Below, one piece after another: positions 4,001 through 36,336 of a stretch of 64,000 nucleotides of DNA. Positions within the stretch are counted from its first letter, which is position 1; every line of letters begins with the position of its first letter. Location of the stretch: sequence record PZ026127.1, one strand, 5' to 3'. The translations under genes were made by a program, and so were the position numbers. The notes beneath the pieces are model-generated. The model saw nothing but the letters and a program-made list of their open reading frames with translations. It was not told where the DNA came from and made no database searches. This DNA is from a phage.

Positions 4001-5024
4001 GTAATGTGATATTAATTGTCTGGGGTGTCGTGTTATTAGGACCAAAAACAATAACACTTTCGTTAGCCAAGAGTTCAACATCGTCACGAATTACACGTAA
4101 ACGAGTTTGAAGGTCGCCGTCCCAAACATACCATAATTTTTCGTTAGAGTTATAAACGAAGAATCCATCGCCTGAGGTACGGAATTCCATGCTATGCTGA
4201 TCAGGTTTACCTAATGCAGACGAAGCATCAAACGTTTCAACGATTAAGTGGAACTTACTTCCTAAACCATCGATATCAACGGTTTTAATCATATCACCTT
4301 GGTTCGCATACTTAGGAAGAGTAAACTTAATTACTGCACCTGAAGTATAACGACGGAGAACATTATCACCGGCTTGAGCTTGGAACTGAGCGGTGTTCGG
4401 TTCTACACGAATACCACGTTCTTCGTTACCAGCTTCCCAGAAATGCCAAAGACGGTTAGCAAAGATAAGCATGTTATAAGAAAAAGGCTTCGTAATTAAG
4501 GTCTCAGTAAACTGATTACCAAAACGAACAATTTTCTGGTTACCGCCACCAGGAGCAGAACTAGACTGAACCTTTATTTCGTTATAACCAACACGTCCAC
4601 CGATATCTTTAATTACAACGGTATCGCCGTCTGTAGGGTTAGGAGGCAAGGTAAATGTAGTAAAGCTAGCAGCGGAATCCACCGCAATATATTCACCAGA
4701 AGCCAGTTGGCGTGTAGGAGATGCTACGGTAATCCATTTAGGGTCCGTACGGGTAGCGGTCCAATAACCAGGTACAAAGGTTCCTGCCGGAGCATCGATA
4801 TCACGTTGAGCAACCCAGATACGTTGGTCATGGATTACGGCGAACCCTTTCTTATATCCACGCGTCTCGTCGTACGCCTGGATGGTGTTCTCATCTATAA
4901 AGAATTCAACGTTGACGCCGTCGTCTAATACATTGTAATCGGCTTTGGCAACATTGATAACTTTCTCGCCTGCAGCATCGAGTCCGGATGTAGCACGGAA
5001 GGCAGGTTTTAAAATATCGGCCAT
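1053..5024 (-). CDS. 34: long tail fibre proximal subunit gp34
   Basis: 1323-aa ORF; N-terminus MADILKPAFRATSGLDAAGEKVINV and overall organisation match T4 gp34 from memory; internal phage-fibre repeats. Confidence 0.93.
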   Translation of the reverse strand: MADILKPAFRATSGLDAAGEKVINVAKADYNVLDDGVNVEFFIDENTIQAYDETRGYKKGFAVIHDQRIWVAQRDIDAPAGTFVPGYWTATRTDPKWITVASPTRQLASGEYIAVDSAASFTTFTLPPNPTDGDTVVIKDIGGRVGYNEIKVQSSSAPGGGNQKIVRFGNQFTETLITKPFSYNMLIFANRLWHFWEAGNEERGIRVEPNTAQFQAQAGDNVLRRYTSGAVIKFTLPKYANQGDMIKTVDIDGLGSKFHLIVETFDASSALGKPDQHSMEFRTSGDGFFVYNSNEKLWYVWDGDLQTRLRVIRDDVELLANESVIVFGPNNTTPQTINITLPTGVAQGDVVKIALNYLRKAQTVNIKAAVGDKIASSVQLLQFPKRSEYPPETEWVLNDVLTFNGNISYTPVIELSYIEDTTTGGKYWVVAQNVPTIERVDSKDDLTRARLGVIALASQTQANVDHENNPEKELAITPQTLANRVATESRRGIARIATTAQVNQDTTFAFQDDLIISPKKLNERTATETRRGVAEIATQVETNTGTDDTTIITPKKLQARQGSESLSGIVTYTSTVGTAPATARDTVGTNVYNKNVGNLVISPKALDQYKATQVQQGTVYLSNQSEVNAGQTASGFANSAVSPETLHARVALDTRTGLIEIATQQETDTGTDYTRAVTPKTLNDRKATEGLTGIARIATQVEFDAGTLDNVISTPLKVKTRFNDTARTSVSAASGLVESGTLWNHYTLDIREANETQRGTARLATQTEVNVGTDDKTIITPLKLHSKKSTESSEGIIRVATNTETTAGTSKVLAVSPSGLKYVVQTETTWEATALRRGFVKLTEGALTHSGNKVTGSGVKFNSGTGLYENDDTVLNAANYPKTGYAVSSYEMNKTLQNFLPINATAVNSEKLDGLDSLQFIRRDVDQTVNGSLTLTKQLNLAAPLVSSSTATFTDVTATNSTFGTVNVVNGTNKWKITAPSTGTTLTIGDTTNVLTMNTATGNVAALNNLSAGNDVQAKNNFVLNGRTIATTTGESSGATLSLGDNSQNLVLKTLDAGNIVANGGGAYKVLTEKNAVEIVDRNFVNQAGDTMTGVLRVNAPVRAFGTKPSLIEQAPTAETVGFWSVDISDEATYSKFPGYHRMILRRHITIDTIQTKPPSVTDGDWKATGWLTLDGTFDSPEIHYLNEDGTEGAPVLGSNDEKLRGQWFDFFDRDKNEIKYPGTLTQFGNTLDSCYQDWICYPTGLNGGTIRYTRTWQKNKNEWTDFAMVYTAANPPTANDVGALPADNATMKNITILDWLRIGNVRIIPDPVTKSVKFEWIE
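2627..3542 (-). repeat. about six tandem phage tail-fibre repeat units inside gp34 (TPxxLxxRxATExxxGIxxIATxxE...GTD)
   Basis: repeated peptide motif read in the gp34 translation (ATESRRGIARIATTAQ, ATETRRGVAEIATQVE, ALDTRTGLIEIATQQE, ATEGLTGIARIATQVE, ANETQRGTARLATQTE, STESSEGIIRVATNTE); nucleotide coordinates approximate. Confidence 0.55.
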
Positions 5025-5131: not shown

Positions 5132-6079
5132 ATGAACGATTTAGATTTTTTACTTCCTGAAGAAGACCAACAAAAAGATGGATTTTTACTCCTAGATTTC
5201 AGCCAAATCATTATGGCTGCGGCTTTCCAAGAGTTTGGTGAGAATGCTGGATTTCCTAAAGTAACTACAGCAATGCTTCGACACCTCGTGTTGAATTCAA
5301 TTAAGAAAAACATTAAAGACTTTAAAAAACAAGGTTACAGCCAACTGGTTATTTGTGTTGACAACTCTAAATCAGGTTATTGGCGTCGTCGCTATTCACC
5401 TTATTATAAGAAAAACCGTGCTAAGGCTCGTGAAGAATCATTATTTGATTGGGAAGGCTTATTTACGGCAATGCATATTATTGTTGATGAGCTTGAACAT
5501 AACATGCCTTATATTGTTATGAACATCGATACTGTCGAGGCCGATGACCATATTGCTGTTTTAACCCGAATCCTCACGGCTTTAGGCCATCCTGTTATGA
5601 TCGGTTCTTCGGATGGTGACTTTACCCAGCTCCATAAATTCCCTGGGGTAAAACAATGGTCTCCAATGCAGAAAAAATTCGTCAAAACAAAATCTGGCGA
5701 TTCATTGCTTGATTGCGTGACTAAGGTTGTTAAAGGTGACCGTAAAGATAACGTCGCGAGTATTAAAGTTCGTGGTGATTACTGGTTGACGATGGTTGAA
5801 GGCGAACGTACTCCTAGCACTCGTGCCAAGGAACTTGAAGCAATTGCTCTGAATTATTATGACCATGATATAATTAAAACACTTCTTACTGAAGAACAAT
5901 ATGAACGTTTCTGTGAAAACCAAATCTTAATTGATATGGACTTTATTCCAGATGATATTGTTGCTTTAATTACTGAAAGATATAATACGTATAACAAACC
6001 TTCGAAATCTAAAGTCTATCCTTATTTCGTTAAATCTGGTTTGTCTAAACTAACCGCTACAGTAGCTGATTTTTATTAA
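5132..6079 (+). CDS. rnh: RNase H (5'-3' exonuclease / flap endonuclease)
   Basis: 315 aa; conserved blocks HLVLNSIK, CVDNSKSGYWRR, YYKKNRAKAREES, EADDHIAVL, SSDGDFTQLHK, KDNVASIKVR match T4 RNase H. Confidence 0.95.
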   Translation: MNDLDFLLPEEDQQKDGFLLLDFSQIIMAAAFQEFGENAGFPKVTTAMLRHLVLNSIKKNIKDFKKQGYSQLVICVDNSKSGYWRRRYSPYYKKNRAKAREESLFDWEGLFTAMHIIVDELEHNMPYIVMNIDTVEADDHIAVLTRILTALGHPVMIGSSDGDFTQLHKFPGVKQWSPMQKKFVKTKSGDSLLDCVTKVVKGDRKDNVASIKVRGDYWLTMVEGERTPSTRAKELEAIALNYYDHDIIKTLLTEEQYERFCENQILIDMDFIPDDIVALITERYNTYNKPSKSKVYPYFVKSGLSKLTATVADFY

Positions 6080-6089
6080 GGTGAATATA

Positions 6090-6359
6090 ATGGCTAAAGA
6101 AAAAGTGAAAGTTGAATTCAATCAAGAAGAACATGGTAACACATTGGCACAACTGATTAAGTCGGCTTCTGATACTAAATTAAAAATGGAAGCTTACGGT
6201 GACGAAATTAAAGATATCAAAGACCGTGCTAAGACTGAACTTGGTGTAGACGGTAAAATGTTTAACCAACTGTTCTCTCTGTACCATAAAGGCACTCGTG
6301 AACGTTTCGAAGACGAAAAAACTGAAGTGGTAGAACTGTATGACACAATCTTTGAATGA
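6090..6359 (+). CDS. dsbA: dsDNA-binding protein DsbA
   Basis: 89 aa from ATG 6090 (track start 6081 is GTG); AGGTGA Shine-Dalgarno upstream; ELGVDGKMFNQLFSLYHK...VVELYDTIFE resembles T4 DsbA; sits between rnh and 33. Confidence 0.8.
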   Translation: MAKEKVKVEFNQEEHGNTLAQLIKSASDTKLKMEAYGDEIKDIKDRAKTELGVDGKMFNQLFSLYHKGTRERFEDEKTEVVELYDTIFE

Positions 6360-6642
6360 TTTTGATGGAGCGGTTAATACCGCTTCCGAACCTGTCCATG
6401 TGCTCGTAAACAAACAACAGAATGGCCTTGATATTGAGGCCTTTGTTGAAGCTGAAGGTTGTAGTTACCTCGAAGCGGCTACCGCATGGTTGGAAGAGAA
6501 CAGCATCCCTGAAGGTAACTTTGCTCGTTATTTGCCTGCAGGAATTATTGATAAAATTATGAACGAAGCCATTGATGATAACTTGCTTCGACCTTCAATG
6601 GCTCGAACGCAAAAAACTAATACTCTGGATTTCTTGTTATGA
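6340..6642 (+). CDS. 33: late transcription accessory protein gp33
   Basis: 100 aa; FVEAEGCSYLEAATAWLEENSIPE and C-terminal KTNTLDFLL match T4 gp33; overlaps dsbA stop. Confidence 0.85.
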   Translation: MTQSLNDFDGAVNTASEPVHVLVNKQQNGLDIEAFVEAEGCSYLEAATAWLEENSIPEGNFARYLPAGIIDKIMNEAIDDNLLRPSMARTQKTNTLDFLL

Positions 6643-7292
6643 TTAAGATTCGCATGCCACCAAACAATAACCGTATGGTGAATGGTAAGAGCGTATATTC
6701 ACTATACTTAATGCTCAAACATCACTTCAATGCCAAATACGACGTTATAAAATATAACTGGGTCATGCGAATCTCTGATACGGCTTATCAAAAACGTCGT
6801 GACAAATATTTCTTTGAGAAATTGAGTGATAAATACACTTTGAAAGAGCTTGCTCTTATTTTCATGAGTAACTTGGTGGCTAACCAAGACGCATGGATTG
6901 GCGACATCAGTGATGCCGACGCCTTAGTCTTTTACCGAGAATATATCGGTAGACTTAAAAGAATAAAACAAGTTTTTGAGGATGATATCAAAAACATCTA
7001 TTATTTCAGTAAGAAAGTGGAAGTTAAAGCGCTTTCTGAAATTTTTGATTATAATAAAAAAGTTAACTCGAGCTATATTTTTAAGCTCCTTCAATCGAAT
7101 GTTATTTCATTCGAAACGTTTATTTTGCTTGATTCATTTATGGATATAATTGATAAACATGATGAACAGACCAACGATTTAGTGTGGTCTAAGTATTCGA
7201 CTAAATTAAATGCTTATAAGAAAATTCTTATAATCGATAATTTAGAAGCTCGTAAATTGTTCATTGAAACTATCAAATCTTGTAAGTTTTAA
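6639..7292 (+). CDS. 59: helicase loader gp59
   Basis: 217 aa; MIKIRMP...GKSVYSLYLMLKHH...KYNWVMRISDTAYQKRRDKYFFEKL matches T4 gp59 (same length). Confidence 0.93.
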   Translation: MIKIRMPPNNNRMVNGKSVYSLYLMLKHHFNAKYDVIKYNWVMRISDTAYQKRRDKYFFEKLSDKYTLKELALIFMSNLVANQDAWIGDISDADALVFYREYIGRLKRIKQVFEDDIKNIYYFSKKVEVKALSEIFDYNKKVNSSYIFKLLQSNVISFETFILLDSFMDIIDKHDEQTNDLVWSKYSTKLNAYKKILIIDNLEARKLFIETIKSCKF

Positions 7293-7381
7293 TGCTTCAA
7301 ACCAACTGTGTTAATATACTAACTCAATCTGTTAAAAACTGTTAATAAAATATAACTGCTAAATCTGCTAAGGTAAATAAT
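7293..7381 (+). promoter_or_regulatory. MotA-dependent middle promoter plus candidate gene 32 translational operator (AT-rich leader)
   Basis: MotA-box-like TGCTTCA (7293-7299), about 12 nt, TAATAT; leader carries repeated CTGTTAA / CTGCTAA elements before the gene 32 ATG. Confidence 0.45.
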
Positions 7382-8287
7382 ATGTTTAAACGTAAAGACC
7401 CTTCCCAACTGGCTGCTCAACTGTCTGCAATGAAAGGTGGTTCTTCTTTCTCTTCCGATGATAAAGCTGAATGGAAATTGAAAGATGACAATGGCGTTGG
7501 TACTGCGGTAATTCGTTTCCTACCTTCGAAAAACGAAGAAAATCCATCTCCATTCATTAAGCTCGTTAACCACGGCTTTAAGAAAAATGGTCAATGGTAC
7601 ATTGAAAACTGTACGTCTACACACGGTGATTTCGATTCATGTCCTGTATGTAAATACATGAACCAGAATGATACCTTTAATACTAATAATGCCGAATACA
7701 AACTGATGAAACGTAAAACTTCCTTCTGGGCTAACATCCTTGTTATTAAGGATAGTGCAGTGCCTGCTAACGAAGGTAAAGTGTTTAAATTCCGTTTCGG
7801 TCAGAAAATTATGGATAAAATCAACCAGATGGTTGAAGTTGATACCGATATTGGTGAAGTGCCGGTTGACGTAACATGTCCGTTTGATGGTGCGAACTTC
7901 GTACTGAAATCTAAGAAAGTTGGCGACTTCAAGAACTATGACGATTCCAAATTCATGGGTCAGTCTGAAATTCCTAACATCAATGATGAAGCTTACCAAG
8001 CTAAATTGATGGAAGAAATGCACGACCTTTCTAAACTGCTCGATTTCAAATCATTCGAAACTAACGAAGCCAAGTTTAAGAAAGTTGTTGGTACAGCTGC
8101 TCTTGGTGGTGCTGCCGCTAAAGCTTCTGCAGCCGCTGATAAGATTGGTGATGACCTGGACGCATTCAGTGCAGACCTTGATGCATATGATTCTAAACCA
8201 TCTACACCGACTCGTTCCACTACTCCTGAGCCGTCAGTAAGTCCTTCTGATGACGATGGTCTGGACGACCTGTTAGCTGGTCTATAA
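7382..8287 (+). CDS. 32: single-stranded DNA-binding protein gp32
   Basis: 301 aa; MFKRK...[12 protein letters not shown]...[15 protein letters not shown]...[13 protein letters not shown]...[16 protein letters not shown] and acidic C-terminus [12 protein letters not shown] match T4 gp32. Confidence 0.97.
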
Positions 8288-9340: not shown

Positions 9341-9370
9341 GTTTACACCAGGCTATGGTAGTGATACTAT
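9341..9370 (+). promoter_or_regulatory. T4-type early promoter cassette
   Basis: GTTTAC, 18-nt spacer, TACTAT; the -10 sits in the loop of stem GGCTAT/ATAGCC. Confidence 0.55.
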
Positions 9371-28911: not shown

Positions 28912-30807
28912 ATGTCCGAACAATTGAATGAGGTATTTGACGGCGCTATAGATTTATCAGCTGTCAATTTAAACCCTAAACTTAAAGTACCGCAGATTTG
29001 GAATATAAAGGCTGAAGGTAATGAGAACCTTGTTGCACGCATGGTTTCATATACTTCTGAAGGTGATACAATCCGCCAAGTTAAACCGGGTGACAAATAC
29101 GTTCATATTATTTTAATGAGCCTATCATCTAAAGGGGCCCCGGCAGAACTCAAAGGTGGTTTAGGTAGTAACCCCATTTCCGCTATTCGTTCTATATTTG
29201 ATACGGTTTATGAACAAGTTAAAAAGCTCCGTATGGATGCCGTTATGTTCCGTTTTCCTACTAAGAAAATGAAAGGTCAGGAAAAAGCTGTACAACGAGT
29301 TCTAGCCAAATTAATAGCTACTAGAGCAGGTGGGCAATTCAAGGTCCTTGATGCCTTGTATCAATATACAGGCAAACATTCATATGTTTTTATCTATCGT
29401 AAAAATAAAAATATAGAATCAATAAACGGTATTCCTAATATTAATCCGGAATTGTATACTAAAGTCGAATCTGAAGTCGGTGATGTGTATGTTTCAAAGA
29501 AAACAGGCGAAGATGTTACCAAATTAGAAGCTATAGCTAAGTCTATAGACGAAATAGAAAAATCACGTTCTGATAAAATGGTTATAACCAAGACTAAGGT
29601 TTCTAAACGGGCCGCTATAAATGCGTTATATTCTACCGCCGAGCCTACAGGATTGAGTAAATTTTCGGCAGAGCACAAAAAAGCTTATGCAGATTATTCT
29701 GCTACTAGTTCCGTTCATTCTTCTGAAGATTCTAAAGAAAGCCAAATAGCTTTAGCCAGTAATAAAATATTAAAAGACGCCTCTAAAGAAATGGCAGAAT
29801 ATTTGGATTATATTTTTAACGGTGTTAATCCATCATTTGAAGTAGACGAGCGCAAACTTAAACTAATTGCTGATATAAAGTTTGCTTTAGAGGCATCAGA
29901 TTCTTTAGATAAATCTAATAGTGTCATAGAGGCTTTAAAATCAGGTAAATCTCATGTAGACATTCTTAGACTAGTCGCTGCGGCCCTTTTAGATGATTCA
30001 GTTAAAGGTACTTGGGCTAGAGAATCTAAAATCAAGGAAGTAATAAAATCCTTAGTAGCAGTTTATACAAAATCTATCCAACCGTTGTTTAAGATATCTG
30101 ATAATCCTAATTTATCCAAACCTCAAGAAGAGGCAGTCAAAAAGTATACTCGTGGCGGCTACAACCATATAAACAACTTTTTGCTAGGTAAAACAGATAC
30201 CACCGATGAAATGATAAAAATGATTGGTGAGTTGGATTCTACATTTGAAAATGGTACAAAACTTCCTAAAGGAACCATAGTGTATCGTTCTCAGATAATG
30301 CCTACCGAAATGGCTTTGAATTCTATAAAACATAAGGTGATGTATCTTCCTATTTTTGCATCAACTTCATTGGCTCCTAATATTTTCGGTGAAATGGGTC
30401 ATGCTCAATCCAACTTAGACCCTGAAGCTCTTTCTAGCGATATAGATAGTAATCTTGAAGACACCATTAAAAGTGCGACCGGAAGTGCTAGAGATACCAT
30501 TAAGCTAGGGCTAATTATTAAAGGTGCTGATAAAATTAAGGTTATTGTGCCCGGTGACTTGGCTAATTGGTCTACAGAAACCGAAGTAATTCTTCCTCGT
30601 GGGGTTATGCTTAAGATTAATAAAGTATACGGTGCTTCCAAGGGACCTATGGGTTCAATTGGTAAATATGTTTTAGTGGAATGTGAAGTTGTAGCTACCG
30701 AGCAAATCACAGAGGAAAATTCATATAGCACCGGATTCTCGTTTGGAAATTATGATAGAATTATGTATGAAGATTCTATGGAAAAATTAGCAAATTTATT
30801 TAAATAG
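28912..30807 (+). CDS. Alt-like ADP-ribosyltransferase paralog 1 (631 aa)
   Basis: N-terminal module shared with the next two ORFs; C-terminal VYRSQ...FASTSL...STETEVILPRG (R / STS / ExE). Confidence 0.8.
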   Translation: MSEQLNEVFDGAIDLSAVNLNPKLKVPQIWNIKAEGNENLVARMVSYTSEGDTIRQVKPGDKYVHIILMSLSSKGAPAELKGGLGSNPISAIRSIFDTVYEQVKKLRMDAVMFRFPTKKMKGQEKAVQRVLAKLIATRAGGQFKVLDALYQYTGKHSYVFIYRKNKNIESINGIPNINPELYTKVESEVGDVYVSKKTGEDVTKLEAIAKSIDEIEKSRSDKMVITKTKVSKRAAINALYSTAEPTGLSKFSAEHKKAYADYSATSSVHSSEDSKESQIALASNKILKDASKEMAEYLDYIFNGVNPSFEVDERKLKLIADIKFALEASDSLDKSNSVIEALKSGKSHVDILRLVAAALLDDSVKGTWARESKIKEVIKSLVAVYTKSIQPLFKISDNPNLSKPQEEAVKKYTRGGYNHINNFLLGKTDTTDEMIKMIGELDSTFENGTKLPKGTIVYRSQIMPTEMALNSIKHKVMYLPIFASTSLAPNIFGEMGHAQSNLDPEALSSDIDSNLEDTIKSATGSARDTIKLGLIIKGADKIKVIVPGDLANWSTETEVILPRGVMLKINKVYGASKGPMGSIGKYVLVECEVVATEQITEENSYSTGFSFGNYDRIMYEDSMEKLANLFK

Positions 30808-30815
30808 GATAGATT

Positions 30816-32897
30816 ATGACCCAATTAAATGAAGTGTTCGAGTCCGAAGGTACACTGCCTGTTGTGAACTTGAACCCAAAACTTAAAGTACCTCAGATTT
30901 GGAAGATTGGAGACGCGGAGTCTCAGTTAGTAGCACGTATGGTATCCTATGCTTCTGAAGGCGATGCTATTAAACAGGTTAAGATGGGTGATAAATATGC
31001 CCACGTTATCCTTATGAGCCTTTCAGCTAAAGGTTCGCCTGCCGAACTTAAAGGCGGCTTAGGCCCTACTCCTGTAGATGCGATTAATACTATTTTTGAT
31101 GTAGTTTATGACCAAGTTAAAAAGCTTCGTATGGATGCCGTGATGTTCCGTTTTCCTACCAAGAAAATGAAAGGTCAAGGCCCTATCGTTCAACGTATTA
31201 TCCAACGTTTGGTAGCACAGAAAACCGGTGGACGTTTTAAAGTGGTTCCGGCTATGTACCAATTTACCGGTAAACATACTTACATCCTGGTAGTCCGTAA
31301 ACAAGCTGATATCGAAGATATCAAAGGTATGCCTGGAATTAATGCTGAATTGTATACTAAGGTAGATTCTGATGTCGGTGAAGTTTATATTTCCAAAAAA
31401 GAAGGTGTGCAGGTTACTAAAGAAACTGCTATTGCTGGCAGTATTGCTAAGGTTGAAGAACGTCGCACTGATAAAATGGTTATAACCAAGACTAAGATTT
31501 CTAGGCGCGCCATTGCAGCAAGCCAATCATTGGAATCTTATCGTAATGAAAGTGAATTGTTTAAGAAATATGAAGCTACTGCAGCGGATTTTAATAAACC
31601 GGCAACAGTTCCATTAATCCCTGAGGCTCAGGAAATGGTTACTAATAACAATTCTCCTGCGGCTAAAAATAAGGTTGCTAATATAGTGGCTGAAGGCACT
31701 GCTGAAGAATTGCATTACGATTATAAAATGTTTCCTCTTCACGGTATAGGTGAAATCCAAGAGAAAATTAAAGAGAAAATTCTTACAGCAATAAAAAACG
31801 AACCTTTGACATCTGTTAAAGCTCTAGAAAAATATGCCTCTGCTATTAATACCGTTTTCGAAGAATACAAAGGTGAATGGCTGGCTATCCATAACAGAAC
31901 TCGTAAAGGCCAACCTGATGACCTTTGGAACGAATTGACAGAGGCCAAGTGGAAAGCAGCCAAGACTAAGTTCATTAAAAAACGTGTATATAGTTTTGCT
32001 GGTGTGGGTGGCGGTATTATGGTTGATATTACTATTGCTCGTGAGGGCTCTAAATATACCCCATCACAAAAGCGCGGAATCAGAGAATATTGTGGTTCAG
32101 GATATACAGACATAAATAATCTTCTTTTAGGACGTTATAATCCTCAGAACTATGAGGTTATGAGCGAAAAAGATATCGAATCTGCAGTTAATAATTTGGA
32201 TTCTGCTTTTGAAAACGGCGACCGTATACCAGAAGGCATCACAGTTTATCGCGCACAGAGTATGACTGCTCCTATATACGAAGCACTAGTTAAAAATAAA
32301 GTGTTCTATTTCAGAAATTTTGTATCTACTTCTTTAACTCCTATCATTTTCGGACGTTTTGGTGTTACCCACGCAGGTATTGGTCTTTTAGAACCTGAAG
32401 TTCGCAATGAATTGACAGTCGATAAAAATGAAGAAGGAATAACTATTAACCCTAATGAAATAAGAGCGTATAAAGAAAACCCTGATTACGTTAAAGTTCA
32501 AATAGGATGGGTAATTGATGGAGCCCATAAAGTTAATGTCGTATATCCAGGAAATCTCGGAATAGCAACTGAAGCCGAAGTTATTCTGCCGCGTGGATTA
32601 ATGGTCAAAGTTAATAAAATAACAGATGCTTCTAATAATGATGGAACAACATCTAGTAATACAAAACTCATCCAAGCTGAAGTTATGACAACAGATGAGC
32701 TTCAAGAATCTGTGGTATATGATGGTGACGTACTAATGGAAACCGGCGAGCTGGTCGTGTATCAAGATGATTTCGATACTTCCGAAAGCCCTGTATCTTT
32801 TGATTCATTTGTTAAATCTACACGGTTTGATGTACTGCCTCTTTTGGCTTCATGCATAGACCTCTATGACATCCCAGAAAAATTCATCCAAGGGTAA
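30816..32897 (+). CDS. alt: Alt ADP-ribosyltransferase (693 aa; closest to T4 Alt)
   Basis: length near T4 Alt (682 aa); VYRAQ...FVSTSL...ATEAEVILPRG; recognised from memory as Alt family. Confidence 0.85.
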   Translation: MTQLNEVFESEGTLPVVNLNPKLKVPQIWKIGDAESQLVARMVSYASEGDAIKQVKMGDKYAHVILMSLSAKGSPAELKGGLGPTPVDAINTIFDVVYDQVKKLRMDAVMFRFPTKKMKGQGPIVQRIIQRLVAQKTGGRFKVVPAMYQFTGKHTYILVVRKQADIEDIKGMPGINAELYTKVDSDVGEVYISKKEGVQVTKETAIAGSIAKVEERRTDKMVITKTKISRRAIAASQSLESYRNESELFKKYEATAADFNKPATVPLIPEAQEMVTNNNSPAAKNKVANIVAEGTAEELHYDYKMFPLHGIGEIQEKIKEKILTAIKNEPLTSVKALEKYASAINTVFEEYKGEWLAIHNRTRKGQPDDLWNELTEAKWKAAKTKFIKKRVYSFAGVGGGIMVDITIAREGSKYTPSQKRGIREYCGSGYTDINNLLLGRYNPQNYEVMSEKDIESAVNNLDSAFENGDRIPEGITVYRAQSMTAPIYEALVKNKVFYFRNFVSTSLTPIIFGRFGVTHAGIGLLEPEVRNELTVDKNEEGITINPNEIRAYKENPDYVKVQIGWVIDGAHKVNVVYPGNLGIATEAEVILPRGLMVKVNKITDASNNDGTTSSNTKLIQAEVMTTDELQESVVYDGDVLMETGELVVYQDDFDTSESPVSFDSFVKSTRFDVLPLLASCIDLYDIPEKFIQG

Positions 32898-32900
32898 ATA

Positions 32901-35024
32901 ATGGAAAATTTAAACGAGGTTTTTGATAGTGATTCCGCTAAAAACTATCCAGTAACAAATCTTAAACCGGGTTCCGGTATTCCACAGATTTTCTCTATCC
33001 AAGCACCAGGTAACGATAACCTGGTTGCTCGCATGGTATCTTATGCGTCTGAAGGCGACGCTATTAAGATGGTTAAGGCGGGCGATAAGTACGTCCATGT
33101 TATCTTAATGAGTTTATCTGCTAAAGGCGCTCCGGCAGAACTCAAGGGTGGGTTGGGTACCGATCCACTCGGTACACTGAACACCATTTTCGATACCATA
33201 TACGAACAAATAAACAAACTTAAAATGGACGCGGTTTTATTCCGTTTCCCTACTAAGAAAATGAAAGGTAAAGGCCCTACCGTTCAGCGCGTATTAGCTC
33301 GTTTGGCTATGGCCCGTACCGGTGGTAAGTTTAAAGTTGTTGACGACATGTTCCAATTCAGCGGAAAACATACCTACGTTCTTTTAGTACGTCGTGGTGC
33401 TAATATTGAAGATATCAAGGGTATGCCTGAAATTAATGCCGATCTTTATACTAAAGTTGAGTCTAAAGTTGGCGAAGTGTATGTTTCTAAGAAAACCGGC
33501 CAGGCCGTAAGTAAGGTCGAAGCAGTAGCGGCATCTATTGCACAAGTTGAAGAGAAACGTACTGATAAGGCTGTCATTACCCGTACTAAGATTTCCCGTC
33601 GTATGGCAGCAGCCGCACAGTATTCTACTGCCGAGCCTGAAACTTTGTCCCCTAAAGAATTGCAGGTTTATAACGAGTTTGAAGCTTCTGTACCGGTTCA
33701 CACGGCTGAAGGCCCTGAGAATGAAGGTATTGAACAGATTAGTCAGAACTTTAAAAAAGGTGCTATTACTAAAATGCGCCAGGCTTCTCAGTTTAAATCT
33801 AAGAGCGAGGACCTTGCCAACTTTAGATACACTATTGCTCTCACACACGCTTTAATGACTGATAGTAAATTTAAACTAAATTATGCTAATAGAGATAAAC
33901 AAGGGTTTGAAATTTACTCTAATAATATGGCATTTTTTAATACAGAAGTCGATAGACTTTTAAGTGGCCTTTCGCAAATCAATACAACCAATAGTCTGGA
34001 TATTATTAAGAAAATTGTTAATAACCTGAGTACCCGTTTTAAGGGTTCCCCTTCAGAGAAAGCATCTAGAATTGCTTTCGCTATGGAAGCCGTTTATAAA
34101 CTGGTTAACGATTCTATTAGTGATGCATATGCTTATTCAGGCGAGCTCATTAAACCTAAGGACCTAACCAAAGACGAAAGCAATGCTATTATTGAATATT
34201 GCGCGGCTGAATATGCTCCTATGAACTTATTCCTTTTAGGTAAACCTGAATCCGAAAACAATACAACGGCTATTAAATTGATTAAGGATTTAGACTCGGC
34301 ATTTACTAAGGGTATTAAACTTCCTAAGGGTACTATTTTGTATCGTGGTCAGGATTTGCCATACAAAATTCTGCGCCATAATATCGATAACAAAACATTT
34401 TACTTTAAGAACTTTGTGTCAGCCTCACTAAAACCTAACATCTTTGGTGAATTTGGTAAAAATTATATGGCCCTCGACAACCAAGCCGTTTTTGTTGGCG
34501 GTGAAGGTTCTTTATCCTCCGCTGATGAGTTGTTTAAATTGGCTAGTGGTAGTTCGTCTGATGTAGGTGAAGTCGATGACGAAGAGGTAGAATGGGAAGA
34601 AGACGAGTTTGGTAATCCAATTGCACCTGAAGGTCCTGCAGATAGAATTGCTGAAATTGGTATGGTTATTCGAGGTGCTGAAGCAGTTAAAGTTATCGCT
34701 CCTGGTGACCTTACAGAATATGCCGAAGAAGCAGAAATTATCCTTCCGCGTGGATTATTGTTGAAGGTTGATAAAGTAGCGGCTTTTGCCATGAATGATA
34801 GAGTATCTCACAAATACCTTATGGAAGCTACCGTAACACCTCCTTCAGAGCTCAGCGAATCTGTTTACGATGGTGACCATTTGATGGAAACTGGTGAAGT
34901 TCGCCTGATGGATGGGTTCAGTCAATTCTTGGTTAATGAATCTGTTTCTGAAAGCAACGAGGCTATGGAAATCCTTGCAGCGTCTTTGGATATCTCTTCT
35001 TTATCAAATAAATTCAAAATGTAG
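32901..35024 (+). CDS. Alt-like ADP-ribosyltransferase paralog 3 (707 aa)
   Basis: shared N-terminal module; C-terminal LYRGQ...FVSASL...AEEAEIILPRG with an acidic insertion. Confidence 0.8.
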   Translation: MENLNEVFDSDSAKNYPVTNLKPGSGIPQIFSIQAPGNDNLVARMVSYASEGDAIKMVKAGDKYVHVILMSLSAKGAPAELKGGLGTDPLGTLNTIFDTIYEQINKLKMDAVLFRFPTKKMKGKGPTVQRVLARLAMARTGGKFKVVDDMFQFSGKHTYVLLVRRGANIEDIKGMPEINADLYTKVESKVGEVYVSKKTGQAVSKVEAVAASIAQVEEKRTDKAVITRTKISRRMAAAAQYSTAEPETLSPKELQVYNEFEASVPVHTAEGPENEGIEQISQNFKKGAITKMRQASQFKSKSEDLANFRYTIALTHALMTDSKFKLNYANRDKQGFEIYSNNMAFFNTEVDRLLSGLSQINTTNSLDIIKKIVNNLSTRFKGSPSEKASRIAFAMEAVYKLVNDSISDAYAYSGELIKPKDLTKDESNAIIEYCAAEYAPMNLFLLGKPESENNTTAIKLIKDLDSAFTKGIKLPKGTILYRGQDLPYKILRHNIDNKTFYFKNFVSASLKPNIFGEFGKNYMALDNQAVFVGGEGSLSSADELFKLASGSSSDVGEVDDEEVEWEEDEFGNPIAPEGPADRIAEIGMVIRGAEAVKVIAPGDLTEYAEEAEIILPRGLLLKVDKVAAFAMNDRVSHKYLMEATVTPPSELSESVYDGDHLMETGEVRLMDGFSQFLVNESVSESNEAMEILAASLDISSLSNKFKM

Positions 35025-35053
35025 TTTACAACACCACAAGGATGTGGTACTAT
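35024..35053 (+). promoter_or_regulatory. early promoter cassette
   Basis: GTTTAC, 18 nt, TACTAT, then ACATGAGGAGAACATT leader. Confidence 0.55.
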
Positions 35054-35081
35054 TACCTTACACAAACATGAGGAGAACATT

Positions 35082-35372
35082 ATGAAATCTGCATTCCGTT
35101 TTAATGGTCAAGAACTGGTAGTTGAAAACGTTATCCCTGCTTCTGAAGAGTTTGACAGTGCAGTGGGTAATGAATTACGTCGAGTTTTCGGTGAAGACAA
35201 ACAGTTTGATATCCGACCTGTTGAGAATTTTTCTTATCCAGAACAAACCGAAAACATTTTTAACGGTGTAGTGACAGGACAACTCGAATCCGAAGCTCCT
35301 ATTTCGGTTACGGTGTTTGTTAAAAAGCAACCACTAATGACCACAGCAGGTTTCATTTCGTTCCGTAAATAA
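35082..35372 (+). CDS. hypothetical protein (96 aa)
   Basis: ORF bracketed by its own early promoter and terminator. Confidence 0.6.
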   Translation: MKSAFRFNGQELVVENVIPASEEFDSAVGNELRRVFGEDKQFDIRPVENFSYPEQTENIFNGVVTGQLESEAPISVTVFVKKQPLMTTAGFISFRK

Positions 35373-35380
35373 ACCCCTAA

Positions 35381-35405
35381 AGGAGAGCATATGCTCTCCT
35401 TTTTT
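35381..35405. terminator. bidirectional rho-independent terminator between convergent genes
   Basis: AGGAGAGCATATGCTCTCCT then TTTTTT; gene 54 stop abuts it on the minus strand. Confidence 0.75.
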
Positions 35406-35406
35406 G

Positions 35407-36336
35407 TTATAACAACCTCGATATTCCACTATTAACCAATCCTGTTAATCCACTAGAAGCTCCTGAAAGTCGGCTTAATTTAGCTACTGAAGAACTCAGG
35501 GAATTGCTCTCACTTATACCCGCCACGCCTTTAAGGACTTTATCTTCCAACCATTCATAAGCAGCTTGTTTGCCAACTGCACCAGTCTGTACACTTCTAT
35601 AAGCAAATGTAACATCAAATGAAGCAATTTGGTTATCACCGTCGTAAGATAATTCCGGGGAAGATACGCTCATTGGAACGCAACCATTAAGCATTACTAC
35701 CGTATGTGGTAATCCATTACGGGAATGAAGGTTGACTTGAATGTCAGCTTCAACATCCTCCGGTAATGCTCTTAATTGTGTAATAGGGTCTTGAACACTA
35801 TTGACCCAATCATTAAAAGCACGGTAGTTAGCAGCTTCAGAATCCATACGGAAGCTTAATACTAATGGAGAATATTCTCTTCCGGTAATTTTGATGTTAG
35901 GTGAGTTGTGGTTCAAATCCATTTCATAGTTCAAAGTATTATCCGGGATTTTAACGGCGTGGACTAAAAGACCTGCCGTAGGATAGGCCATATTGAAAAA
36001 ATCCATCAGATATGTACCTACTTCAAACTCTCCTAGTAAGCTCTGCACAACCCTGGATGACATAGCTCCAATCAAATATTTACTTATGCCTGACTTACGA
36101 ATCAACTTCTGAGTGCCCGCTGTCACTAATGTCGTAACACCTTGGGTCAACTCTCCTTGTGTAATACCAAACAAATCGCTATTCAATGGGATATTGTTAA
36201 ATAAAGCTCCACCGAACTGGTCGAGGAGCGCTTGAGATTTAGAAGAAGGAACCGTTGCAAATACCACACTAAACAGGTTATTCCTTTGTAGGTCAATATT
36301 AATTGCCTGATTCTGAAATTCTTGTAAAGTATACAT
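35407..36336 (-). CDS. 54: baseplate tail-tube initiator gp54
   Basis: 309 aa; MYTLQEFQNQAINIDLQRNNLFSVVFAT resembles T4 gp54; synteny. Confidence 0.88.
   Translation of the reverse strand: MYTLQEFQNQAINIDLQRNNLFSVVFATVPSSKSQALLDQFGGALFNNIPLNSDLFGITQGELTQGVTTLVTAGTQKLIRKSGISKYLIGAMSSRVVQSLLGEFEVGTYLMDFFNMAYPTAGLLVHAVKIPDNTLNYEMDLNHNSPNIKITGREYSPLVLSFRMDSEAANYRAFNDWVNSVQDPITQLRALPEDVEADIQVNLHSRNGLPHTVVMLNGCVPMSVSSPELSYDGDNQIASFDVTFAYRSVQTGAVGKQAAYEWLEDKVLKGVAGISESNSLSSSVAKLSRLSGASSGLTGLVNSGISRLL

Follow-up and report, generated by a model that had tools for sequence, protein, structure and literature searches.

A predicted early unit between the alt genes and gene 54 of a Dhakavirus is very probably the orthologue of T4 alt.-3

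We analyzed a stretch of phage DNA of 64,000 nucleotides (nt) from sequence record PZ026127.1 (this whole stretch is called the window below). At 35024-35405 it carries a short putative transcription unit with a single open reading frame (ORF) of 96 codons, placed between three tandem genes for Alt-like ADP-ribosyltransferases (ARTs) and the late baseplate gene 54. The unit is very probably the Dhakavirus orthologue of the T4 gene alt.-3, sitting in its ancestral slot as the last gene of the early-strand block and converging on genes 54-48-29. In a sequence comparison, this region of the window was 100% identical to Escherichia phages WG01 and IME281; as judged from this DNA, the window phage is a member of the genus Dhakavirus, represented here by the WG01 type.

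Identity and ancestral position of the alt.-3 unit

The 96-amino-acid (aa) product matches the Pfam family PF17602 (DUF5498) from end to end, with residues 1-96 aligned to profile positions 1-96 (E value 6.7e-34; 116.7 bits against a cut-off of 27), and also phrog_1739 (E value 2.6e-42). Its identity with T4 Alt.-3 is 58%, and the name given in related records is "Alt.-3 conserved hypothetical protein." Because of the matches to DUF5498, phrog_1739 and T4 Alt.-3, the ORF can be assigned to a known, named gene; as far as homology goes, it is the already catalogued alt.-3/DUF5498 gene and nothing new in kind. As a discovery it therefore adds little, since gene, family, location and early timing of expression had all been documented before. 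A tblastn search found alt.-3 in 847 phage records.

The gene was then compared with its T4 counterpart (T4p197, UniProt P39493, PF17602, PHROG 1739). T4 Alt.-3 is likewise a 96-aa protein with an acidic isoelectric point (pI), encoded in the slot between alt and gene 54 and flanked by the same promoter core, a Shine-Dalgarno sequence and a hairpin, and the C-terminal motif F-I-S-F-R-K is common to both proteins. They differ at about 40 residues. The T4 gene follows the short remnants alt.-1 and alt.-2, whereas the gene in the window follows a full-length third Alt paralogue.

Selection on the protein was estimated from the ratio of nonsynonymous to synonymous substitution rates (dN/dS), which was 0.044 against phage JS98 (synonymous divergence dS of 0.67) and 0.031 against phage SP18. 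By this measure, Alt.-3 is a real gene under strong purifying selection. Between the window and T4, identity was 58% for Alt.-3, 65% for gp54, 60% for gp48, 61% for ligase, 48% for Alt and 35% for gp29. The conservation of Alt.-3 is unlike that of a fast-evolving arms-race gene and, because it is comparable with that of gp54, gp48 and ligase, suggests a conserved partner.

The gene order ligase - alt.1 - alt - alt.-3, followed on the opposite strand by the convergent genes 54 - 48 - 29, is common to T4 and the relatives counted below; the succession of alt, alt.-3 and the convergent gene 54 occurs in at least 12 genera, and the slot between the last alt and gene 54 was found in T4 and ten other phages as in the window. 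The unit occurs in T4 and in Mosig-, Marfa-, Kanagawa-, Winkler-, Gelderland-, Karam-, Kagamiyama-, Gapriver- and Slopek-like phages, most of them with a single alt. One alt copy was counted in T4 (Tequatrovirus; in addition to the alt.-1/alt.-2 remnants), SQ17 (Mosigvirus), MY02 (Marfavirus), Q7622 (Kanagawavirus), X20 (Winklervirus), ABTNLPp2 (Gelderlandvirus), PG7 (Karamvirus) and EcS1 (Kagamiyamavirus), two in SP18 (Gaprivervirus) and JS98 (Dhakavirus), and three in WG01 (Dhakavirus), represented by the window. Each of these phages has exactly one alt.-3, whether it carries one, two or three alt genes. In the corresponding slot of Klebsiella phage PMBT63, we found a remote member of the family, 92 aa long (hhalign probability 94.5%, E value 8e-8), in a unit whose promoter, Shine-Dalgarno sequence and hairpin are laid out as in the window. 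A structure search added further remote members from Yersinia phage TG1 and Morganella phage MP1.

Some relatives have alt without alt.-3. In Aeromonas phage Aes012 (2538..5429 of locus L011), a short and a long alt-like gene are present with nothing between them and gene 54; Krischvirus MIZ2 (6077..7383 of locus L012) has alt, a gene for a 274-aa ART and an unrelated 161-aa ORF; and in Acinetobacter phage Tonic (3477..5558 of locus L010), alt is inverted and co-oriented with gene 54. According to tblastn, alt occurs in 1,219 phage records versus 847 for alt.-3, a gap that perhaps partly reflects the sensitivity limit of the search.

From these gene orders, the alt.-3 unit is ancestral in position, and the copy number of alt upstream of it is what varies. 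This corrects a first reading of the window, given in an earlier note made from the letters alone. The note had seen the unit as an inserted cassette wedged between the Alt cluster and the baseplate genes, but alt.-3 occupies its usual slot in T4 and many genera. The note had also raised, as speculation, a functional link of the unit with an Alt paralogue, such as that of a regulator or immunity factor, and had named as evidence against it the presence of the cassette in relatives lacking extra alt copies, together with the lack of an interaction or phenotype. The first of these holds, since the unit is present in such relatives and most carriers have one alt; Aes012 and MIZ2 have two ARTs and no alt.-3. 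A tie to the extra Alt paralogues is thus not supported. Its statement that the ORF has no recognisable motif stands as far as function is concerned and falls for the family, since DUF5498 and phrog_1739 match over the full length. Its account of the layout, with plus-strand genes converging on minus-strand late genes, agrees with the ORF map and the family matches: ligase, alt.1 and the three Alt-like ARTs are on the plus strand, and gp54, gp48 and gp29 are encoded on the minus strand (Table 1). In the ORF map of the window, any other ORF overlapping the unit, on whichever strand, is at most 57 aa long.

Table 1. Features of the alt.-3 locus, in positions of the window
Feature	Position	Strand	Basis or remark
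Alt-like ADP-ribosyltransferase paralogues	28912..30807, 30816..32897, 32901..35024	+	Family matches
Third Alt-like ADP-ribosyltransferase paralogue, 707 aa	32901..35024	+	Left boundary
T4-type sigma-70 early promoter (predicted)	35024..35053	+	Motif and nine-genus alignment
Shine-Dalgarno sequence GAGGAG	35070..35075	+	6 nt 5' of ATG
alt.-3 coding sequence, 96 aa	35082..35372	+	ORF map (ATG at 35082, TAA at 35370-35372), Pfam DUF5498, phrog_1739
Palindromic hairpin and T-run	35379..35408		10-bp stem at 35379-35402, loop ATAT; no strand assigned
Gene 54, late baseplate tail-tube initiator, 309 aa	35407..36336	-	Right boundary; stop codon at 35407, convergent with alt.-3

Predicted signals and expression of the unit

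The predicted promoter of alt.-3 consists of the box GTTTACA (35024-35030), a spacer of 17 nt and the sequence TG-G-TACTAT ending at 35053, with transcription predicted to start near 35060. The GTTTACA box opens with the G that also ends the TAG stop codon of the preceding alt paralogue. The sigma-70 early promoters of T4 are said, in the 2003 review of Miller et al., to have a -35 element GTTTAC, an extended -10 element and an A-rich upstream region. The candidate promoter has the -35 GTTTAC, the 17 ± 1 spacer and the TGn-TAnnnT that characterize the T4 type; it shares with this type GTTTACA, the 17-nt spacer, TG-n-TACTAT and an A/T-rich upstream stretch, and it differs in having TACTAT instead of TATAAT as the -10 hexamer. 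When the 100 bases 5' of the alt.-3 start codon were aligned across nine genera, the bases GTTTACA of the -35 element, GTG.TA...T of the extended -10 element, TGAGGA of the Shine-Dalgarno sequence and ATG were invariant, and the spacer and leader varied freely. A generic sigma-70 scan of 4.5 kb gave 7 sites versus 10.6 expected and was thus not above chance. The pattern GTTTAC-N13-15-GTGNTANNNT, on the other hand, had 5 matches in the 64-kb window versus 0.04 expected from shuffles, all of them on the plus (early) strand. The remaining four matches, at 9341, 16579, 20311 and 24597 on the same strand, are exact and probably mark additional early promoters of the phage.

Downstream of the ORF, the hairpin has a perfect stem of 10 base pairs (bp), 5 of them G-C, and is followed on the plus strand by TTTTTTGTT. 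On this strand its predicted folding free energy is -16.3 kcal/mol (z = -5.6), none of 200 shuffled sequences being equally stable, and it has the features of an intrinsic terminator, namely a G+C-rich hairpin with an immediate U-run. On the minus strand, the hairpin is as stable (z = -4.7) and lies 4 nt past the stop codon of gene 54, and the tail UUUAGGGGUUUAUUU contains UUU only, followed by AGGGG; the terminator scan called the plus strand only. In the record of phage fPS-90, terminators are annotated on both strands at the corresponding site. Termination in both directions, weaker in the minus direction, is thus plausible from the sequence features.

A hairpin follows alt.-3 in nine genera, where the stems differ (GGGGACC, GGGAGCC, GGGAGAC or GGGAGAGC), with double compensatory changes in 3 of the 5 consensus stem pairs. 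The consensus fold of the hairpins aligned with MAFFT was out of register because the stem lengths differ, and the individual folds were relied on instead. No Rfam family was above threshold at the unit. STnc390 matched at 18.6 bits, below its cut-off of 50; this match falls on the terminator hairpin and was rejected. In Enterobacter phage PG7, the stretch from the stop codon of alt.-3 to the hairpin contains a run of AATAA/AAAAT pentamers, AATAAAATAAAATAAAATAAAATAAA (about 6292-6317 of locus L004). The run gives a long U-rich tail for a minus-strand terminator and has no counterpart in the window.

The expression of the T4 genes was taken from the supplementary tables of a published transcriptome and proteome of T4 followed over time. 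In T4, alt.-3 has early RNA and early protein and hence is made as a protein, whereas alt has middle RNA and late protein, and alt.-1 and alt.-2 have middle RNA and no detected protein (PMC9697503). Because Alt is late and Alt.-3 is early, the two are not co-expressed in T4. The early class agrees with a unit that has its own promoter and is kinetically separate from alt. T4 gene 54 (5320..6285 of locus L001, minus strand) is classed there as having early RNA and late protein (supplementary file 4, PMC9697503). The early RNA may come from antisense transcription that continues from alt.-3 beyond the hairpin, or from a signal that is not strand specific, and this class bears on the efficiency of the terminator.

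The proposal in the earlier note of an autonomous early unit is borne out by these data: the promoter, Shine-Dalgarno sequence, 96-aa ORF and terminator are all present where it had placed them, at the boundary between early and late genes, and the T4 orthologue is early and alt is not. Its terminator, described as bidirectional, holds for the plus strand (hairpin and T-run); on the minus strand, a stable hairpin with a weak U tail was found and the scan made no call.

The Alt.-3 protein and its possible role

Alt.-3 of the window is a protein of 10.8 kDa with a pI of 4.8 (14 acidic and 10 basic residues), and the pI was 4.5 to 4.9 in all of the homologues examined. Eight residues, E11, F24, F50, G66, E71, F91, F94 and R95, do not vary among 26 sequences and are found in the window protein as well, and the C terminus is nearly always F-x-x-F-R-K. 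An AlphaFold2 model built from the 26-sequence alignment had a mean confidence score (pLDDT) of 95.4 and a predicted template modeling score (pTM) of 0.83. The fold is confidently predicted to be compact, with two strands, a helix, a strand, a helix and a long hairpin (E2-7, E10-15, H22-36, E40-46, H53-64, E71-80 and E83-95, with E for strand and H for helix). A Foldseek comparison of the model with the PDB found no solved relative (best E value 0.09; TM score of at most 0.35), a profile search of PDB sequences gave no match, and neither did PADLOC. The BFVD structure search returned uncharacterised proteins of T4-like phages only. HMMER, run exhaustively against 1.84 billion representative proteins, gave 18 clusters and no domain fusions; these were short, phage-type proteins except for two, P0043 and P0046, which are repeat or WD40-type proteins and were rejected as chance matches. 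No enzyme motif was found by the family, profile and structure searches. A literature search found no paper on DUF5498 or on the Gp54-alt intergenic region.

The only published phenotype connected with Alt.-3 comes from CmdTAC, a defence system made up of toxin, antitoxin and chaperone, in which the toxin attaches ADP-ribose to mRNA (Vassallo et al., Nature 2024, PMC11618068). All T4 escapers from CmdTAC lengthen Alt.-3 from 96 aa, either to 110 aa by a 1-nt deletion or to 117 aa by a mutation of the stop codon (PMC11618068 and its preprint). The extended protein, unlike the wild type, rescued the toxicity of CmdTA and stabilised the antitoxin CmdA against ClpP-dependent decay, and a T4 alt.-3 deletion was viable, was still restricted and evolved no escape in 17 rounds (PMC11618068). 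Our literature search found nothing further on Alt.-3 in later CmdTAC papers.

Both T4 alleles could be reproduced from the sequence. Any 1-nt deletion within nt 252-288 of the gene gives 110 aa, and a change of the stop codon to a sense codon gives 117 aa; the resulting tails, NKNMGTFRSPLLYCS and KYGDLSVPIVILLLIFYSAN, stem from two different frames and bear no relation to each other in sequence. Because two unrelated tails have the same effect, what matters is presumably a folded Alt.-3 domain plus some tail rather than a specific tail sequence. In the window, a 1-nt deletion within nt 257-288 would give 109 aa, and a stop-to-sense change 117 aa, with the tails NKPLKESICSPFLL and TPKGEHMLSFFVITTSIFHY. 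The same mutation types thus yield 117 aa and 109-110 aa in the two phages, and these parallel alleles imply that the latent escape route is preserved in the window. On the plus strand at 35373-35435, two frames remain open for 13-20 codons past the alt.-3 stop codon, a stretch that covers the hairpin and, in antisense, the end of gene 54. No natural Alt.-3 with a C-terminal extension was found among 26 database homologues and 9 phage loci. Database entries of 106-107 aa turned out to be upstream start-codon calls, and those of 103-113 aa to carry internal insertions or upstream start calls, so that they were discarded as extensions.

We propose the following course of events, of which the part on the transcription unit is strongly supported. 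Host sigma-70 RNA polymerase would start at the T4-type promoter overlapping the upstream alt stop codon, and the message of about 350 nt, with a near-ideal ribosome-binding site and one 96-codon ORF, would end at the intrinsic terminator, which would also cap the 3' end of the opposing gene 54. Alt.-3 would be made in the first minutes of infection and may act by binding a conserved partner, with no catalysis. We lean, with low confidence, toward Alt.-3 being a non-enzymatic host-takeover or counter-defence factor that binds such a partner early.

Several points weigh against this proposal. The promoter and the terminator of the unit in the window are predictions, and alt.-3 can also be part of longer transcripts that begin farther upstream, because alt is followed by no terminator of its own. 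Wild-type Alt.-3 of T4 neither activates nor inhibits CmdTAC, and the T4 deletion has no reported phenotype (PMC11618068). Moreover, that escape mutations recur in alt.-3 could be a matter of genetic accessibility instead of a native affinity for Clp or CmdA, because the gene is dispensable, strongly expressed, placed at the end of its unit and followed by open frames past its stop codon.

One other explanation follows from the neighborhood. Alt.-3 could serve an Alt ART as regulator, chaperone or immunity factor, for example by restraining an Alt paralogue or directing it to its targets. Toxin-like ARTs often have adjacent antidotes, and alt.-3 stands directly after an alt gene wherever it was found, a constant adjacency by which a general link with Alt is suggested; CmdTAC, the sole defence tied to Alt.-3 variants, also employs an ART toxin. 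Nevertheless, we consider this role very unlikely. A single alt.-3 is kept regardless of the number of alt genes, phages with two ARTs (Aes012 and MIZ2) or with alt (Tonic) do without it, and alt is recorded in more phages than alt.-3. In T4, Alt is late and packaged and Alt.-3 is early, which leaves them without co-expression. Antidotes of ART toxins are macrodomain or ARH-type hydrolases and stoichiometric immunity proteins. What Alt.-3 has in common with them is adjacency to an ART gene; it differs in lacking a hydrolase fold or motif, in a copy number that does not track that of the ARTs and in a timing unlike that of Alt. Searches with Pfam, PADLOC, PDB profiles and Foldseek revealed no similarity of Alt.-3 to a known ART antidote or immunity protein, including macrodomain, ARH and other hydrolase-like proteins. 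Finally, the extended Alt.-3 worked via the stability of CmdA, not by blocking the ART CmdT.

It has also to be considered whether the ORF is secondary and the unit acts mainly at the RNA level. Its promoter and hairpin would then control convergent transcription where early and late genes meet, by keeping early antisense transcripts out of gene 54 or by protecting the 3' end of the gene 54 mRNA. The boundary hairpin is kept in all of the genera, with compensatory changes in its stem, and the RNA of T4 gene 54 is classed as early though the protein is late, possibly an antisense signal. Yet the Alt.-3 protein has been detected in T4, its dN/dS of 0.03-0.04 and conserved length of 96 aa reveal selection on the protein, and a hairpin alone would do such a job without any ORF, which makes this explanation extremely improbable. 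Another possibility retains the takeover function without a native Clp link: Alt.-3 would target RNA polymerase, the ribosome, the nucleoid or the membrane, and the escape alleles would be pure neomorphs. An early, small, acidic and strongly conserved protein resembles many T4 takeover proteins, escape by two unrelated tails fits a gain of function driven by the tail, and CmdTAC is unaffected by the wild-type protein. We hold it to be unlikely, though with appreciable weight, as the family, profile and structure searches gave no similarity to known takeover proteins, the deletion is viable with no reported defect, and every independent escaper mapped to alt.-3, none having arisen without it.

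Returning to a non-enzymatic factor that binds a conserved partner, the partner may lie on the axis of ClpP-dependent proteolysis and antitoxin turnover. This axis is the only pathway with a demonstrated effect of an Alt.-3 variant, and even so we regard it as a rather doubtful lead. The stronger form of this lead is quite unlikely: a native modulator of Clp proteolysis or toxin-antitoxin turnover with a fold absent from solved structures, serving as a conserved counter-defence scaffold one mutation away from neutralising CmdTAC and equally poised in this Dhakavirus. T4 encodes PinA, an inhibitor of the host AAA+ protease Lon (discussion of the CmdTAC preprint). The analogy would apply to the extended Alt.-3 only, as a small early phage protein that keeps a host protease off a substrate; the wild-type protein is without such an activity, and the extended form is compared by its effect on CmdA decay. 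Alt.-3 is valuable as a target for study, being among the rare small early proteins of T4-type phages that are conserved like essential genes, with a confidently predicted orphan fold and a published genetic handle. Its native partner could reveal how T-even phages handle host proteases or toxin-antitoxin defences.

Alt paralogues upstream of the unit

The three Alt paralogues of the window are full length and arranged in tandem. Because their pairwise identity is only about 40%, they are probably old duplicates; the middle copy (30816..32897) is nearest to T4 Alt, at 48% identity. Relatives have one alt in most genera, two in JS98 and SP18 and up to five matching places in phage 04086.

In T4, alt.-1 and alt.-2 match Alt residues 1-117 only. 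The third Alt of the window ends in NKFKM-TAG and T4 alt.-2 in KKFKM-TAG, both overlapping the -35 box of alt.-3 (35010-35030 in the window; 4955-4975 of locus L001 in T4). By their sequences, alt.-1 and alt.-2 seem to be what is left of a second alt copy, since lost, in which the junction with the alt.-3 promoter was retained. In genera with a single alt, the gene ends in FVQG-TAG, resembling the end of the middle Alt of the window (KFIQG).

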